IMG/VR virus record: IMGVR_UViG_3300025789_000018
Strand: one strand, 5' to 3'
Origin: a virus
Lineage: Duplodnaviria; Caudoviricetes
Length of the DNA stretch: 64,000 nucleotides
Each line of letters starts with the position of its first letter. The stretch's first letter is position 1. The notes beneath the pieces are model-generated. The model saw only the letters and a list, made by a program, of their open reading frames with translations. It was not told where the DNA came from and did not search any database. Of the stretch, positions 3,445-49,928 are shown piece by piece. The translations under genes and the position numbers were made by a program.

Positions 3445-4886
3445 GTCATTCTCAATCCGCTAAAATCTTTACGGCCGGCAGCCTTAGTCATCCACTTCAT
3501 ATTGTCTTCTTCGTTGGCACGAATACCGACCTGAGTGTTGTCCATTACCGGCTTGTCCTGATACTTATCTTTCTTAGGACCTTCTAGAATATTCTCTTGC
3601 TCAGAATCATCCACATCATGAAAACGCATCTTAGACTTGTTTACACCGATAACGAACCTCTTGTTTTCATTGATATCGCTATAGCGGTTCTTCAACTGCT
3701 TGACAAGGATCTGGTTCATTTCAGCCAGTTCATCTGTTACCATCAGAGCAAACATGAAGTCTACTGTTGCAGGCAAGCCAAATGATTCAGAGGTGTTGTC
3801 TAGCCCAAGATCAGAAGAGTTATAACCATCACGATTTGACTGTGTAGCCGTGATGATTGGTAGATCAAACTCAACCGCAAGACCACGTAGTTCTTCGGCA
3901 ATCGACTTGATGTACATATAACTATTTACAGAACCACCCATCTTCATACGTGTAGAAGCACAAATGTTTAGATAGTCAACGTAGATTACATCTGGTTTGA
4001 AGTTCTTCTTAATACGAAGTTCTTGCAATAGATGCCGGAAGTGTGCAGCACCAGCAGATGATGTTGGATACTCCTTGATAATCAACTTGCCTTGTGTTGA
4101 TGACTTGATTCGATTGATCTTCTTGTTGAAAGAATCTTTCGGTAGATCACGAAGTTCGTCCATCGTGATATTCATCAAGTTGGCGTCAATACGTTCTGCA
4201 ATCCGCTCTTCGGACATTTCCATGGTGATATAGAGAACGTTCTTGCCCATGTCCAGATGATTCGCTGCACAGTGCGTCATAAACATCGTCTTACCAACGC
4301 CTGTGGACGCTAGAATACAAGACAACGTTTTCTTAGATACACCACCCTTAGTAATCTTATTGAAATACTTCAGGTCAAACTCTAGCTTCTCTTCCTTCAG
4401 ATGGTAGAAGTCATACCTCTGTTCAGCATCACCAAGAAAGTCATGCCCGATGTTTGTATCAAAAGAGACTGCCAGAGCCTCAGTTAGAATCTCTGGCAAT
4501 GCTCCTTTACCGCGTTTGTCATCTTTGCCATCAATGATCTTGATGGAGTCCATGATTGCATTATAGACGGCTCGTTCTTGACAGAACTTCTCCGTTTCGT
4601 TAAACAACCAATCAATGGACGTAGCCAAGTCTGCATTGAATGTCTGTACAGTATCTTTGCAGATTGAATACTCATCTTCACTAATATTTGTGAGAGACAA
4701 GATTTCAGACTGCAAAGCTTCCTTTGTAGGCACCCTGTAATAAGTCTTGACATACTTGTCAATAAGTCCAAACACGATCTTGTTAGGCCGTGTTTGGAAG
4801 TATTCGGTCTTCAGGAATGGGATCACCTTTCTGCAATATTCTTCATTATAAAGTAGATGTGAAAAGATTACCTGTTCTTCAATCAC
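3441..4886 (-). CDS. gp41: replicative DNA helicase (T4 gp41-like, DnaB family)
   Basis: Walker A ASTGVGKT, VLYITMEM, IYVDYL, TATQSNR, QLKNRY. Confidence 0.95.
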   Translation of the reverse strand: MIEEQVIFSHLLYNEEYCRKVIPFLKTEYFQTRPNKIVFGLIDKYVKTYYRVPTKEALQSEILSLTNISEDEYSICKDTVQTFNADLATSIDWLFNETEKFCQERAVYNAIMDSIKIIDGKDDKRGKGALPEILTEALAVSFDTNIGHDFLGDAEQRYDFYHLKEEKLEFDLKYFNKITKGGVSKKTLSCILASTGVGKTMFMTHCAANHLDMGKNVLYITMEMSEERIAERIDANLMNITMDELRDLPKDSFNKKINRIKSSTQGKLIIKEYPTSSAGAAHFRHLLQELRIKKNFKPDVIYVDYLNICASTRMKMGGSVNSYMYIKSIAEELRGLAVEFDLPIITATQSNRDGYNSSDLGLDNTSESFGLPATVDFMFALMVTDELAEMNQILVKQLKNRYSDINENKRFVIGVNKSKMRFHDVDDSEQENILEGPKKDKYQDKPVMDNTQVGIRANEEDNMKWMTKAAGRKDFSGLRMT

Positions 4887-40225: not shown

Positions 40226-40387
40226 TTAGTCCTCTGTGTTAAAAAACTTCTTTGCTACTTCAATCTTCTTATCGTCTAGGATTTCTGCAACGCGATCCTT
40301 TAGAATAGAATCAACGGCTGCTTGAACTCCGACGATATTACCGTCAATAGCAAAGTTAACGATATCTGATGAATCATAGTCTGACAT
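40226..40387 (-). CDS. small prohead core protein (gp67-like, 53 aa)
   Basis: Not in track. MSDYDSSDIVNFAIDGNIVGVQAAVDSILKDRVAEILDDKKIEVAKKFF; lies immediately after the portal gene. Confidence 0.7.
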   Translation of the reverse strand: MSDYDSSDIVNFAIDGNIVGVQAAVDSILKDRVAEILDDKKIEVAKKFFNTED

Positions 40388-40430
40388 AATATTCTCCACT
40401 TTTTGATTATTCTTATTTATATTTATAGTA

Positions 40431-42653: not shown

Positions 42654-44960
42654 TTAAAACTGTCCAACGATTTCAGAGAAATCAACACCTGACCTTACGG
42701 CGACGAAGTTCAACTGGATATAGTTGATTGATCGTGCTGGTTTAATATAAATGTCGCCAACGAACTGATTTGCATTGATGACAGCAGGAGTATTGTTCGT
42801 AGAATCGCATACTACCTTAAAGTCTTGAATGCCTTGTAGCCCTTGAACTTGCTTCAAGAAAGGAGTGACAAGCGAAACAAACTGTGCTTGCGTGAATGAG
42901 TTGTTGAACTCAAATAGCAAGTTCTGTGCGGCTTGTGATATTGTCTTTTCAAGAATAATGAATAGACGACGGACGTTGATACGATCAAAGGCAGATGGAT
43001 TTGATAGTGTTTTATCACCATTCAAGATTGTGCCCTGACCTGGGAATGTCACAACTGGATTGACGCCTAGTGGATATAGAATATCGCGATCTGCTTTAGT
43101 TGGATTATAAGAAAGTTTAACGATATTCTTGATCTGGCCACGATTGAAACCAGCAGGTGACCACCATGGATCGCGAACATTATCGGTAAATACGCATAGA
43201 CCAGCGATGTCTCCATTTAGTGGAACATAACGATATACGTCATTGTACTTGTCGTACTGATATTTGTAGCCAGAATCCATGACACCATATGAAGATGCTG
43301 TTAAGCCAGCACGGAAGTTTTGAACAGAAGCAAGTTCATTACCTACGTTGTTGACAACTGATGAAGCATTTGGTGAAATGAACACAACGCAGTCCATACG
43401 TGGCTGAGCAATGTTCTGGATTAGATAGTTGCCAAGTAGCGTTCTATTTGTTTCGTCTGATTTCCCGGTCATTAGAAGAGAAATCGAAGCGCGTTCGGTT
43501 GACTTATAAAGATCATAAGCGGCAGTGATTGCACCGATGTTTGATCCAACATTGCTTTCTGAGAAGCCATCTTGACCGCCAGCAAAAGCGATAGTTGTAG
43601 GAACAACATCAGTTAGTGTTGTCATATTGGCTGAAGTATTGGCATATGAAGCAGTTGGCAGGTTTGTTACCCAAACATAGTTTGAGTTTTGATTTAAAAC
43701 ATTTAGATAGTAGCTAGTTGCGCCGTCAACGGTTTTCGCATCAGTTGCGCGTGATAGCCCCTGAAATACTTCTAGGATTTGCCCTGGAACACCAGTAAAC
43801 TTGCCTAGTGTATCTGCGACAACAACGTGAATGCTATCGACAGCAGCACTATTGCCATAGTTCTGACCGTAGTAAGAAACCGCTGGTGCGCCAGTTACAG
43901 AACTGTAATACTGCCATAGACGACCAACATTGCCTGATGCAACATATGGAGTTGATAGTGTGTATGGAGTATAGAATGAAACGTTTAGGAACTCTTGTGC
44001 AGCCTTGAATGTTGCTGAACCGGTTGATCCTGTGAATGCGCTTGATAGAACAACTGATGTTGAACTTGGAACTGAAACAATAGTTGTGTTGTTAGCAAGA
44101 CCAGCAATAGAAGCACTTACAGAGAAACCAATGAGAGCATTTGACATTCCACTTAGGCCAGTAACAGTATTTGACGAAGCGGTAAAAGTTGCGCCAGCAT
44201 TGATGACTAATGAAGGAGCAGTGCCTTTTGATGCAACTTGTAGTGTCTGTGTACCAATTGATGAGTTGCCAGCAGTAATCCAATCGCCAACAGTCAATGC
44301 TTGATATGCGGCATATGATGCTAGGTTAGCAGCAACAGTAGCAGCATTGATGATTACTGAAGTATCGTTGAATGATAATACAGCAGTATTTGAGTTGAAA
44401 GCGAATGTGGTATTTGAGATATTCACCAAGTTTGATGAATATGCGTTAGCAGTATCAACCGTTGAGATTGTAAGGCTGCTACCGATTGCACCTGGATACT
44501 TTGCAGTATAGAGATATGTTGGATTTGAAGAAAACTGACCATTGTTTGCAGCAGTATTATATGCTGTCTGGTTTGTGATATTGAAGTTTGCGTTAACGTT
44601 CGAACCCCAATATGTATTACCAGCAACGTTAGCAACAATAGCGCCACTTGTATCAGCGATAGCACTAAATGTACCATAACCGTCAGTTGTAGTATCTGTT
44701 GTGTTAGCAGCGCGACTTACGTATAGTGAGTTACCATAAGCAAGGAAGTTTGCGGCTGTGAAAAATGTTTCGGCATTAAGATTGGTTGGTTTACCGAATC
44801 TTTTCCACAAAGTTACTTCAGAATTTACTAGAACTAACTGACCGATTGGTCCCCAGCGGAATACACCAGCAATAGCGCCAGTTGTAGTCGAAACGGTAGG
44901 TACTGTTGTGGTTGCATCGTATTCGGTTACGCTTACACCTGGACTGACTTGAATTGCCAT
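42654..44960 (-). CDS. gp18: tail sheath protein
   Basis: SPGVSVTEYD, WGP, WWSPAG.NRG, FDRINVRRLF, YIKPARSINYIQLNF. Confidence 0.97.
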   Translation of the reverse strand: MAIQVSPGVSVTEYDATTTVPTVSTTTGAIAGVFRWGPIGQLVLVNSEVTLWKRFGKPTNLNAETFFTAANFLAYGNSLYVSRAANTTDTTTDGYGTFSAIADTSGAIVANVAGNTYWGSNVNANFNITNQTAYNTAANNGQFSSNPTYLYTAKYPGAIGSSLTISTVDTANAYSSNLVNISNTTFAFNSNTAVLSFNDTSVIINAATVAANLASYAAYQALTVGDWITAGNSSIGTQTLQVASKGTAPSLVINAGATFTASSNTVTGLSGMSNALIGFSVSASIAGLANNTTIVSVPSSTSVVLSSAFTGSTGSATFKAAQEFLNVSFYTPYTLSTPYVASGNVGRLWQYYSSVTGAPAVSYYGQNYGNSAAVDSIHVVVADTLGKFTGVPGQILEVFQGLSRATDAKTVDGATSYYLNVLNQNSNYVWVTNLPTASYANTSANMTTLTDVVPTTIAFAGGQDGFSESNVGSNIGAITAAYDLYKSTERASISLLMTGKSDETNRTLLGNYLIQNIAQPRMDCVVFISPNASSVVNNVGNELASVQNFRAGLTASSYGVMDSGYKYQYDKYNDVYRYVPLNGDIAGLCVFTDNVRDPWWSPAGFNRGQIKNIVKLSYNPTKADRDILYPLGVNPVVTFPGQGTILNGDKTLSNPSAFDRINVRRLFIILEKTISQAAQNLLFEFNNSFTQAQFVSLVTPFLKQVQGLQGIQDFKVVCDSTNNTPAVINANQFVGDIYIKPARSINYIQLNFVAVRSGVDFSEIVGQF

Positions 44961-45036
44961 TGTTATCTCCCTTACACTTATCTTGGATTATGAATATGCT
45001 TCCTTTGATGTATTTATAAAAACACAATACTAGATG

Positions 45037-46182
45037 CTACATCATCAACCACTGTCGGAAGGATGACTCGAAATCATCACCCGAATTGGGATCTTCCCAT
45101 GCTTCATCAACATAACCAAATGGCACAAGATTTTCTTCAATAAGTCTCTGGTTGTTGGCCAAAACTTCAAGTCTTGCATCGTTGTTGCTTAGTTCTTTGA
45201 AATAGTCTTGATGTACTAACCAAGAGAACAGAACGCAACACATAACAAGGTCATCATGACTTCCTTCTTCGGCTTGATACTTTGCATTGTGTTCAACAAA
45301 GCGATACATTTCTTGAAGAAGATCATAGTCATTGATTATCAGTTTATCATTCTCAACCAAACTCTTAAAGTTGGCACAACCAATACGCTTGACTTGTGTT
45401 GTGGTACGAACACCCATAGCAAAACGAACACCGCCCATAGTGCCGCCGATCTTCTGGCCAGCGCGACCTTTAGTCTTTGTTGATAGTACGTTTTCATATT
45501 CTAGATCGTGCTGTAGAATGTCCACCACCTGTTGACCGACGTCATTGATTTCAACTAGAACATATGCATCATTGTAATGTCGCGACACGTTGTAGATGAT
45601 CGTAGGATAAACCAAAGATTCGATTTCATTATTACGATATTTTGCTACCACTCGATATGGTACGTCTGTGATGTCAAACACAATGAATGCAGAATAATCG
45701 ATACCAGAACCACGGGAGGTATCAACCACAGTTGCATATACACGAGACTCATCCACATCTTCGTACATATCAACATCATTATTTGTTAGAATAGGATCAA
45801 TGTAAGTAAGTTGTGCTAGTTTGTTACCATCAATCAGTGTATTAGATGAACCAAGGAACTCTGTATTGTGTGACACAACATCATTAGAGTAGTATGTTTC
45901 AGATTCTTCAACGCCTACTGGATCATAAACTATATATGGTCCTTCTGTAAGTAGCGTAATCTTAGATATTTTTTTCCCAGTTATTGTTTGTCCTATTGAC
46001 AAATCTTTTGCAAAAGAAAATCCACTATCTGTCAAAAAGACATGTTTAGGTGATACTCTAATAAACGTATCATCAAAATCAAAGCGAATCAAAGTATCTG
46101 TAGTTTTTGACACCACACCAGAAAAATCTTTATATCCTAAAGGAGTTTTTATTCTGTATCTTGTGTTTTCTTTATACTGCAC
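45037..46182 (-). CDS. gp17: terminase large subunit C-terminal part, preceded by a 106-aa C-intein
   Basis: Intein end VYDPVGV...DVVSHN|T, then TEFLGSSNTLI, VDTSRG, HDDLVM nuclease domain. Confidence 0.92.
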   Translation of the reverse strand: MQYKENTRYRIKTPLGYKDFSGVVSKTTDTLIRFDFDDTFIRVSPKHVFLTDSGFSFAKDLSIGQTITGKKISKITLLTEGPYIVYDPVGVEESETYYSNDVVSHNTEFLGSSNTLIDGNKLAQLTYIDPILTNNDVDMYEDVDESRVYATVVDTSRGSGIDYSAFIVFDITDVPYRVVAKYRNNEIESLVYPTIIYNVSRHYNDAYVLVEINDVGQQVVDILQHDLEYENVLSTKTKGRAGQKIGGTMGGVRFAMGVRTTTQVKRIGCANFKSLVENDKLIINDYDLLQEMYRFVEHNAKYQAEEGSHDDLVMCCVLFSWLVHQDYFKELSNNDARLEVLANNQRLIEENLVPFGYVDEAWEDPNSGDDFESSFRQWLMM

Positions 46183-46726
46183 TGAAACTTTTACCTGTTA
46201 CTAGTTTTCTAATACATGCAGATGTTACGCCATATTCTTCTGCATACTTTTTACTAAATGCTTGTTCATATGATAAAACTTTACCATTCTTTTGAACTTT
46301 ACCCACTCCATCAATATATGGTCTAGTGTTGTATAGTTCAAGTATAGCGTCAACATTTTCACCAAGTTTGCTGTGATAAACTTTACCTCTCTTTGCTTCA
46401 CTTGCTTTAGGTAAAGAATATCCACTGATGCCTTTATTCCAAGGTGTGGTTCCCTTTTTTACACCGCCAACACCAGGTCTTTTCTTACCTTTTTGTATAT
46501 CACTAATATATGTCGGAGACATACCCATTCGTTTTGCTATCATTACACAAGCGCCATAGTCACCCTGCGAATAGTGTATATCATAGTGTTCTTGTATACT
46601 CACGCAAGTAAGATTCATGATATCATTATTGGCATGGTTACCATCAACATGATGTATTTCATATGATCTACCTTCTGTATCTCTCGGAATAGGACCATAC
46701 TCTTTTTCATATATTTTTCTATGCAT
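46172..46726 (-). mobile_element. HNH homing endonuclease between the two gp17 halves
   Basis: YEIHHVDGNHANNDIMNLTCVSIQEHYDIH; own late promoter at 46748 and AGGAG SD. Confidence 0.9.
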
Positions 46727-46773
46727 AAAAATCTCCTAGTTCTATTGTATTTATAAAACCAAGAAACTCTATC

Positions 46774-47655
46774 TCAAAGTGTATTATATAGTTGACTTAT
46801 AGGAATGCACATATATTCATTTGTTGTTGTATCGTAGACATCTATCATAGTTTCTTCTGCAACACATTCAAATTCCTGTCTCCACTGACGTTCACTGGTG
46901 TTTTTGATATATTCATCTTTGAATGCTTCGTCGCGACCAGGAACGTCTCTCCAGTTAACAGAGCAGCGAACGTATGTGTTACGCCCTTGTTCTGAATCGG
47001 ACCACAACTTATAGAATAAGTTCATCCCATTCGGTGTTGAAGTGATGATAACTTTAGTTGTCTTACCTGAAGTGATCGTAGGATAAACTGAAGCGAAGAA
47101 TGATTCTTGAATGTTGTTGGGAACGAACGCAAACTCATCAAGATATAGAAGTGAGAACGTCTTACCACGAACAGCAGAACCACCTGTGGCTGATGCAAGT
47201 GCCTTTGATCCGTTCTCTAGTTCAATGTCGCCTTCATTCCAACGCTTCACGCCTTGCTGTAACCAGTTGGGAAGATGTTCAAACATCAACTTCACACGGT
47301 TAAGGATTTCTCGTGCCTGCATGTCTTTGTTGGCAAGAATAGCAATAGCATAGTTTTTATTGAAAAGAAGTTTATGAAGCATGTAAGCGCAAACTGTAGT
47401 TGTCTTACCGCACTGGCGAAGTAGTTTACAAATAGAGAAACGATTTGTCTCAAATGTATTGACCATATTCTCCTGAAATGGCCAAAGATTGAAGTTGATT
47501 AGACCGTCGTCAACACTAACAATCTTACAGTATGTTTTGATAAAGTAAATCTGATCTTCAGCACATCTTTTAAACTCTTTTACCTTATCTAAATCCCACT
47601 CAACAGGAACGTTGACGGCTTTTAGATTTTGGTTATTATTATAGTATTCTGCCAT
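46774..47655 (-). CDS. gp17: terminase large subunit N-terminal part, ending in a 30-aa N-intein
   Basis: RQCGKTT, LYLDEFAF, ITSTPNG, RQEFE|CVAEETMIDV...LYNTL*. Confidence 0.92.
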   Translation of the reverse strand: MAEYYNNNQNLKAVNVPVEWDLDKVKEFKRCAEDQIYFIKTYCKIVSVDDGLINFNLWPFQENMVNTFETNRFSICKLLRQCGKTTTVCAYMLHKLLFNKNYAIAILANKDMQAREILNRVKLMFEHLPNWLQQGVKRWNEGDIELENGSKALASATGGSAVRGKTFSLLYLDEFAFVPNNIQESFFASVYPTITSGKTTKVIITSTPNGMNLFYKLWSDSEQGRNTYVRCSVNWRDVPGRDEAFKDEYIKNTSERQWRQEFECVAEETMIDVYDTTTNEYMCIPISQLYNTL

Positions 47656-48092
47656 TATTCACCTTTGAGCAGTTTGTGCAACTCAGCGGTTGTTCCCACA
47701 AATAGGTTGTTAGTTACATTACCAGTAGTCTTTTCTGCTTCTTCTGGTGTTTTGTCCATCTTCTGGATCTCTTTGACTTGCTTGCTTAAGTTCAATAGCT
47801 TCTGGTTAGCTGTCACCAAGCCATTCACCAATGTGCCAACAACTTCGTATGCAGATGCCGACTGAGACTGCTTTGCGAACTCCAGCATGTCGGTGAGTGC
47901 TTCCTGACCAGCTTCGATGATGTCATAGAGATTCTTACGCGCAAAGTCGTAATCGTTCTCTGCATTGGTTTGCGATTCGTCTTGAACAAGAATAGCCTGT
48001 GTAGGCAACTTCTTTGTCGGAAACCCAACCGAGTCGTTCATTGGGCTAAGGCCTAGTTTTTGTGAAATGATTTGATTATTCGCTATTTTCAT
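47655..48092 (-). CDS. gp16: terminase small subunit
   Basis: DYDFARKNL, AYEV, NNLFVGTTAELHKLL. Confidence 0.9.
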   Translation of the reverse strand: MKIANNQIISQKLGLSPMNDSVGFPTKKLPTQAILVQDESQTNAENDYDFARKNLYDIIEAGQEALTDMLEFAKQSQSASAYEVVGTLVNGLVTANQKLLNLSKQVKEIQKMDKTPEEAEKTTGNVTNNLFVGTTAELHKLLKGE

Positions 48093-49109: not shown

Positions 49110-49828
49110 TAAATCACATCTCCGAATGGATTGGTTATACTAAAGTCCACAAACGTATTTGCCAAAGCTACAAACTCTTCATTCTGTGTTGATGGATCGA
49201 TTTCATCTAGAACAAAAGTTTCGTTGACAATATCATAACCAGCTTCGGTAATAAGATCGTAACTTGCTTCGGTGAGATACCAGAAGTTACTGTCTGCCAC
49301 TGAATAGTTCTGTTGGATCGAATCGATGTTTGCGATGCCAGTGTTGAACTGTTCCGAATCGTAGTTGAACTTCTCTAGCTGCAACTCAAAGTATTGTAGC
49401 GATCCAGTCTGGTAGAAGGATCTTTCATGTTCAACGAACTTGATTTCAAAAATACCAGTTGTGAATGGAAAGTAAACAAGATCACCTTCTTGTGGGCGAA
49501 TCAAGTTGTATATGCTACCAATGTCTTGTGCGAACCTGCGACGACTCACCGATAGTGTAAGTTTGTCTGCTACGTTTAGACCGAACTTGCTGAGTAGATC
49601 GCCTTCACCTTGGAAACCTTCATAATCATTAATATACATTTCAAGTGGAATAGCCACGTTAAATGAAGACGTTGGTGCTTCATCAAATAACTTATCAATA
49701 TAGTTTGTTGTTCTCGGAAGATAATAGCAATCGATACCAAAAATCTGAATCATTTCGTCTGCTAGATTCTGTAGCAGATTCTGCTCAGGATTGTAATCAG
49801 AGTTTCGAAAGAAAAACGATGTCGGCAC
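49109..49828 (-). CDS. gp14: neck protein
   Basis: EQNLLQNL, GIDCYYLPR, GDLLSKFG, RPQEGDLVYFP, FEIKFVEHE; GTG start. Confidence 0.93.
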   Translation of the reverse strand: MPTSFFFRNSDYNPEQNLLQNLADEMIQIFGIDCYYLPRTTNYIDKLFDEAPTSSFNVAIPLEMYINDYEGFQGEGDLLSKFGLNVADKLTLSVSRRRFAQDIGSIYNLIRPQEGDLVYFPFTTGIFEIKFVEHERSFYQTGSLQYFELQLEKFNYDSEQFNTGIANIDSIQQNYSVADSNFWYLTEASYDLITEAGYDIVNETFVLDEIDPSTQNEEFVALANTFVDFSITNPFGDVI

Positions 49829-49928
49829 TTTTGATGATCCTAAAGATTGTTTTATGTTCTATTTATAGAATATCTATTGACAATCTTTAGGATCAGTGTA
49901 TACTCAGTAATGTACTGTAAGATATAGG

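Follow-up and report, generated by a model that had tools for sequence, protein, structure and literature searches.

A large terminase gene of an uncultured T4-like phage fractured by a cassette of split-intein halves and an HNH gene, with the protein probably rejoined by trans-splicing

How does a T4-like phage obtain a complete large terminase (TerL) from a gene that has been broken in two? The question is raised by a locus in the 64,000-nt stretch of DNA from IMG/VR record IMGVR_UViG_3300025789_000018 (hereafter the window), which has no near-identical phage in GenBank/INPHARED by megablast. As Table 1 shows, three genes lie head to tail on the minus strand in the order TerL-N, a 47-nt spacer, a free-standing HNH_3 gene, and TerL-C. 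TerL-N carries the ATPase half of the enzyme, in which a Walker A (CGKTT) and a Walker B (LYLDE) motif can be read, and its C-terminal end is RQEFE followed by CVAEETMIDVYDTTTNEYMCIPISQLYNTL and a stop codon; these last residues, which open with Cys1, form the N-terminal intein segment (IntN). TerL-C opens with the C-terminal intein segment (IntC) and continues into the nuclease half. The cassette that separates the two exteins therefore spans 1002 nt (46866-45865) and comprises IntN, the promoter/hairpin spacer, the HNH gene, and IntC, and no further copy of the intein or of the HNH gene is found within the 64-kb window. An earlier note on this DNA had described a terminase split by an atypical intein (a 30-aa IntN and a 106-aa IntC) around a free-standing HNH gene at 45037-47655; every one of its open reading frames (ORFs) and coordinates was correct, and the description is borne out by the homology to CatC and the intact catalytic blocks reported below. 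We consider it probable (roughly 0.8) that the TerL of this uncultured T4-like phage was fractured by a mobile cassette and is rejoined by protein trans-splicing to 538 aa.

Table 1. Features of the fractured terminase locus, in window coordinates
Feature	Coordinates	Strand	Description
TerL-N	47655..46774	(-)	293 aa: 263 extein residues plus the 30-aa IntN
TerL N-extein	46867..47655	(-)	263 aa; T4-type large terminase ATPase domain, ending ...WRQEFE; Pfam Terminase_6N, E 5e-25
IntN	46774..46866	(-)	30 aa CVAEETMIDVYDTTTNEYMCIPISQLYNTL plus TGA; codons 46866-46777, stop 46776-46774
Hairpin	46728..46770	(-)	18 bp, in the 47-nt IntN-HNH spacer; 3' arm 46745-46728
Late promoter element, T4-type	46748..46755	(-)	TATAAATA; top of hairpin stem plus loop, IntN-HNH spacer
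HNH_3 gene	46726..46172	(-)	184 aa, free-standing, putative homing endonuclease; Pfam HNH_3, E 6.8e-12
TerL-C	46182..45037	(-)	381 aa; GTG start; IntC, then Thr+1 and the nuclease half
IntC	45865..46182	(-)	TerL-C residues 1-106; SPKH, VYDPVGV, VVSHN
TerL C-extein	45037..45864	(-)	275 aa plus stop; nuclease domain, starting TEFLGSS; Terminase_6C, E 5.9e-15

The segments that flank the HNH gene have the hallmarks of an intein. The sequence search with IntC returned one solved structure, PDB entry 6DSL, whose chain B ("Consensus engineered intein CatC") aligns with query residues 3-111 at E 2.7e-10; according to PMC11766414, the Cat sequence is a consensus built from the atypical split inteins AceL-TerL and GOS-TerL. 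A 36-aa IntN query found no match among PDB sequences, probably owing to its shortness. The residues of a class 1 intein are present in the window copy, namely Cys1, S44-P-K-H47 in block B, D87 in block F, H105-N106 in block G, and Thr at position +1. A family profile, made from the IntC of ten members of the window's clade and searched against 1.84 billion proteins, found 1342 cluster representatives at E<=1e-3, which points to a very large metagenomic family. Among the 138 of the best 150 family representatives that were aligned, the block B His is universal (138/138), and the block B Ser/Thr (137/138), the block F Asp (136/138), the penultimate His (135/138), and the terminal Asn (137/138) are nearly so; the catalytic residues are kept among 11 clade members as well. 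IntN has 30 residues with the same end point in the window and in three diverged loci (L027, L028, and L029), and its Cys1 and Thr6 are invariant. By its sequence, we assign the element to the AceL/GOS/Cat family of atypically split TerL inteins.

A structure prediction bears on the fit of the two segments. The predicted complex of IntN (with nine extein residues) and IntC scores 0.78, the best of three controls scoring 0.01, and since the similar 6DSL complex is already solved, the score may reflect likeness rather than independent proof. Of 78 solved complexes, 51 attain that mark, as do two of 108 mismatched pairs. Contact agreement between runs was at least 82%, and the predicted local distance difference test value of the partner was at least 78. 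In the predicted interface, residues 264-267 on the IntN side face IntC residues 42-44, 85-86, and 104-107, an arrangement that would bring both splice junctions and the catalytic blocks together.

Uninterrupted relatives reveal what removal of the cassette leaves behind. A 75%-identical relative (L012) encodes an uninterrupted 543-aa TerL that reads WRQEFETEFLGSS, with QEFE-TEFLGSS at the site. This is exactly the predicted ligated junction and supports a rejoined terminase; the earlier note had proposed RQEFE-TEFLGS. The corresponding peptide predicted for the ligated TerL of the window is QEFETEFLGSSNTLIDGNK. Three other contigs (L008-L010) are precisely without the 1002-nt cassette, and their TerL has 538 aa, the sum of the two exteins (263+275), with a C-extein protein 99% identical to that of the window. 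In one such relative, closer to the window than L012, the C-extein is ~95% identical in DNA. Within 45 nt on each side of the insertion point, L008 and the window differ at nearly only the -1 and +1 codons and three adjacent silent sites. The comparison identifies the cassette as an in-frame insertion at a contiguous homologous site, the removal of which restores the host sequence.

Conservation bears on whether the broken gene is real and in use. Beyond the fact that all of the data are metagenomic, nothing specific speaks for a dead terminase of a defective phage or for an assembly or sequencing artefact. The same arrangement occurs in seven IMG/VR contigs that are complete over the match (L001-L004, L006, L007, and L013) and in two truncated ones (L005 and L014); in these nine contigs the IntN and the splice-junction peptides are identical and TerL-C is 99% identical, and the 90%-identity protein cluster is seen on 12 contigs. 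Because nine independent contigs share identical junction peptides, an artefact or a dead gene is very unlikely, and we give either almost no credence. The three-gene layout is also kept in distant lineages and evolves there under constraint. In L027-L029, with an IntC 49-52% identical to that of the window, TerL-N has 294-298 aa and ends in a 30-aa IntN, an HNH_3 orthologue of 191-203 aa follows, and the HNH stop overlaps the IntC start. In these loci, the divergence of the intein and the HNH gene is similar to that of the exteins. Approximate ratios of nonsynonymous to synonymous substitution (0.12-0.36 for IntC and 0.17-0.34 for HNH) lie within the range of the exteins, values that are indicative only, since the synonymous sites are saturated.

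HNH genes are frequent in phage group I introns, and in the window the TerL-N and TerL-C frames coincide, the cassette amounting to 334 codons. Both facts would suit removal of the cassette at the RNA level, as a group I intron with the HNH ORF inside it, or bypass or read-through by the ribosome, with no protein trans-splicing in either case. However, a scan of 44800-47900 on both strands found neither a group I intron nor any other Rfam family at E<=1, and the frame sharing is not conserved, as the cassette of L029 measures 1036 nt, which is not a multiple of three. IntN and IntC are, moreover, recognisable conserved protein sequences, which would be pointless if they were removed as RNA, and the HNH gene has a promoter and a ribosome site of its own. 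These observations make RNA removal or read-through a highly improbable explanation.

The promoter and ribosome site of the HNH gene are combined in the spacer behind IntN. The window has 17 copies of the late promoter element TATAAATA, compared with an expectation of 3.35, and 16 of them lie on the coding (minus) strand; the spacer copy does not vary among the four diverged loci (the window and L027-L029). The spacer hairpin that contains it folds with a free energy of -19.9 kcal/mol (z -4.87), and none of 200 shuffled sequences did equally well. The HNH Shine-Dalgarno sequence AGGAG (46739-46735), 8 nt before the ATG, falls within the 3' arm of the hairpin. Single-sequence folds of L028 and L029 give hairpins of equivalent design with different stem sequences; RNAalifold on a MAFFT alignment of the four spacers found no consensus structure, the arms being unaligned. 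Other late-promoter sites in the window gave folds unlike that of the HNH leader. At the other end of the gene, the HNH stop and the GTG of IntC overlap by 11 nt. An in-frame stop five codons upstream of the GTG leaves IntC-TerL-C without any earlier ATG, GTG, or TTG start. The start is non-ATG in the window and in several relatives, and its overlap with the HNH stop is always present; together, the overlap and the non-ATG start suggest translational coupling.

Two further sites in the window, both on the minus strand, show related promoter arrangements. At 49830-49900, a late promoter (49860-49867) lies inside a 15-bp perfect inverted repeat (GATCCTAAAGATTGT...ACAATCTTTAGGATC), the fold being -23.2 kcal/mol over an 83-nt stretch directly upstream of a structural gene that starts at 49828. 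The promoter-in-hairpin geometry is that of the HNH gene, yet here it stands ahead of a non-nuclease gene. At 40414-40427, two overlapping TATAAATA elements 6 nt apart lie upstream of a gene that starts near 40360.

The residue at the +1 position is what sets this intein apart. The statement in the earlier note that AceL-TerL uses Cys+1 is right, according to the review PMC11766414. Among 139 readable top matches to the family profile, the +1 residue is Cys in 130, Thr in six, and Ser in three. A quick tree unites the Thr+1 TerL inteins in a single group of 15, with a Shimodaira-Hasegawa-like approximate likelihood ratio test support of 94, that lies among Cys+1 sequences; 14 of its 15 members have Thr+1 and one nested sequence has Cys+1. 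Thr is invariant among the 11 clade members aligned. In T4 gp17 the aligned residue is Ala, so TerL itself needs no nucleophile there. A Thr that is invariant in the clade, with Cys in most other members of the family, is the pattern expected under selection for splicing. We conclude from the alignments that Thr+1 is a real, clade-wide variation. To our knowledge, all of the characterised atypically split TerL inteins have Cys+1, and the literature searched, a scope outside which many subscription papers fall, contained no characterised example with Thr+1. In inteins generally, the pairing of Cys1 with Thr+1 is common, at ~12% of cases in a survey as relayed by PMC11766414. Cys+1 is therefore a trait of the characterised members, not a requirement of intein chemistry.

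A different use of the intein halves has to be considered as well. They could be splicing-dead, or serve as a non-covalent dimerisation module, with the terminase working as a two-chain enzyme like the NrdA of phage Aeh1, which by the account in PMC2677866 is split by an HNH gene and works without an intein. Several observations weigh against trans-splicing, and the first two of them also favour a two-chain enzyme. In the alignment with T4 gp17, the break falls between T353 and A354, which we take to lie near the point where the ATPase domain gives way to the nuclease domain, and halves parted near a domain boundary could in principle work non-covalently. The window intein has Ser seven residues past the block F Asp, where nine of ten clade relatives have His, a position at which G, D, N, K, H, and T all occur family-wide. 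Thr is usually a slower +1 nucleophile than Cys. The -1 and +1 codons of the intein-less L008 are TGT-TGT (Cys-Cys) versus GAA-ACA (Glu-Thr) in the window, and the spacer hairpin is not evident in a single-sequence fold of L027. Against a two-chain enzyme, however, stands the retention of Cys1, S-x-x-H, the block F Asp, His-Asn, and the +1 nucleophile over ~50% divergence. A docking module alone would need none of these residues, and gp17 manages with Ala at +1. On this evidence we regard a two-chain terminase, the chief alternative to trans-splicing, as unlikely.

If the terminase is rejoined by trans-splicing, the elements of the locus can be ordered into a plausible sequence of events. Late in infection, three proteins would be made: TerL-N-IntN (293 aa), the HNH endonuclease (184 aa), and IntC-TerL-C (381 aa). 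Translation of the HNH gene is probably confined to transcripts begun at the late promoter within the hairpin, because longer transcripts would fold and hide the ribosome site while late-promoter transcripts are without the 5' arm. Translation of IntC-TerL-C is probably coupled in turn to that of the HNH gene, since its GTG overlaps the HNH stop. The 30-residue IntN would then dock into the nearly complete IntC and finish the Hedgehog/intein (HINT) fold. Class 1 trans-splicing would proceed through the Cys1 thioester, attack by Thr+1, cyclisation of Asn106, and an O-to-N shift, and would yield a seamless 538-aa TerL with the junction QEFE-TEFLGSS. Packaging would thereby depend on trans-splicing. 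The HNH enzyme would act as the homing nuclease of the element, which would account for the presence/absence polymorphism in near-identical phages. A more speculative proposal, which we put forward tentatively and with some doubt, is that the Thr+1 clade of ~15, the window copy among them, is a naturally efficient Cys1/Thr+1 atypically split intein, with a 30-aa IntN short enough for synthesis, that leaves a cysteine-free Thr junction, and that the coupling of IntC-TerL-C to the HNH gene through their conserved stop/start overlap makes the latter undeletable.

The HNH gene is predicted to encode a homing endonuclease. Beside HNH_3, Pfam reports a weak HTH_3 match in the protein, and PHROG 12324, annotated 'intron-like DNA endonuclease', matches at E 7e-27. 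The HNH motif is intact (EIHHVDGN...NL...H), and H25, H26, N38, and H47 are invariant in the four Thr+1 loci, the orthologues at the same place in L027-L029 being 50-53% identical. An orthologous HNH_3 gene (43% identical, E 1e-48) also occupies the same place in L031, a Cys+1 locus, and HNH_3 is therefore not peculiar to the Thr+1 clade; another Cys+1 relative, L032, carries a NUMOD3 nuclease. At 2290-2397 of L031, the TerL-N ORF passes the IntN end and reads ...DLYMML-ECEFLG before its stop, repeating the junction residues -1 Glu and +1 to +5 CEFLG. This repeat may be a footprint of the entry of the nuclease gene into the intein.

The distribution of the cassette among close relatives is informative about its movement. 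It is present in nine contigs and absent from three (L008-L010), with precise excision boundaries. Several of the plus and minus contigs have neighbouring IMG sample numbers, from which a shared habitat may or may not follow. Comparison of the window with L008 gives a DNA identity of mostly ~88-99% in the flanking genes, 70-85% in the N-extein, and 91-99% in the C-extein. There are two types of N-extein, one common to all cassette-plus contigs and the other to all cassette-minus contigs. Such a distribution would be expected had the cassette moved together with the upstream extein, by co-conversion or by recombination bounded by a nuclease gene.

In the same comparison with L008, the N-extein (46867-47655) stands out as a sharp mosaic block, with its edges at the TerL start codon and at the intein insertion site. 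L008 also has an extra 284 bp (3929-4211 of that contig) between the small-terminase-like gene and TerL, without an ORF longer than 48 aa. At the corresponding place in the window, the small-terminase-like gene and TerL overlap (ATGA at 47655), and the diverged N-extein tract begins where L008 has the 284-bp insertion.

The closest counterparts of the intein are AceL-TerL, GOS-TerL, and the consensus Cat-TerL (Thiel 2014; Bachmann & Mootz 2015; Stevens 2018, PDB 6DSL), for which we rely on the summaries in PMC11766414 and PMC13014065. The host protein is the same, a T4-type large terminase, and the proportions agree, with a short IntN (25-37 aa in those inteins, 30 here) and a long IntC (104-115 and 106) in separate ORFs (PMC11766414). 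The AceL and GOS TerL inteins are split after the first helix (PMC13014065), a position that in the window can be deduced solely from where the CatC alignment starts. Cys1 is common to AceL, Cat, and the window, and block B reads S-x-x-H in CatC and in the window. In contrast to Cys1/Cys+1 in AceL and Ser1/Cys+1 in GOS, the window has Thr+1; its identity to CatC is low, roughly one third over the aligned region.

The gene layout also has precedents. Dassa et al. described such "fractured genes" in 2009 (PMC2677866), among them one Lake Gatun gp17/terminase locus whose split point is unusual and whose C-part is long. The window resembles their cases in its three same-strand ORFs, in its spacer (27-51 nt in PMC2677866, 47 here), in the overlap between the endonuclease 3' end and the IntC start (6-69 bp and 11), and in the TATAAATA hairpin upstream of the endonuclease gene, which they found in 10 of 16 endonuclease 5' leaders. 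It differs in the nuclease, GIY-YIG or Vsr-like in their loci and HNH_3 in the window, L027-L029, and L031, although the same authors predicted that HNH enzymes would be capable of this role. In the Aeh1 nrdA/mobE system (Gibb & Edgell, as reported in PMC2677866), an essential gene of a T4-like phage is likewise interrupted by a free-standing HNH gene; a late promoter lies inside a hairpin that sequesters the ribosome-binding site, and the endonuclease gene overlaps the downstream half. As described there, however, the two halves of NrdA associate non-covalently without any intein, whereas the nuclease gene of the window is flanked by complete intein halves.

Considering these precedents, the novelty of the locus is smaller than the earlier note implied, since the literature already describes the arrangement and its regulation as well as the intein family. 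By comparison of sequences, what differs from the described cases is Thr+1 together with the HNH_3 type of nuclease. Short-IntN split inteins are valued for semisynthesis. The suggestion in the earlier note that a natural Thr+1 intein would be a useful tool variant holds in part: the variation is real, clade-wide, and without a characterised example in the literature searched, but Cys1 is still required, so the window intein is not a cysteine-less tool, and the arrangement has been known since 2009. A Thr+1 relative with its native extein context (E-TEF) would widen the choice of scar and may be slow. For phage biology, the locus would be a clean natural case of an essential packaging motor that depends on a selfish element. 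With plus and minus alleles in closely related uncultured phages, homing, co-conversion, and the cost of the element become directly comparable. The understanding of such systems is unchanged, and the value of the locus lies in a candidate Thr+1 tool, which is modest, and in the plus/minus allele pair for studies of homing.

Finally, contiguous maxi-inteins with an HNH domain were looked for among the long matches to the family. The long matches examined were instead TerLs with two or more mini-inteins, and none was an HNH fusion. They include P0019, P0022, P0023, P0027, and P0028, metagenomic T4-type TerLs of 840-1020 aa that contain two to four separate stretches of the family intein, inserted at different sites (the Walker B region, the EFLGSS site, and others).

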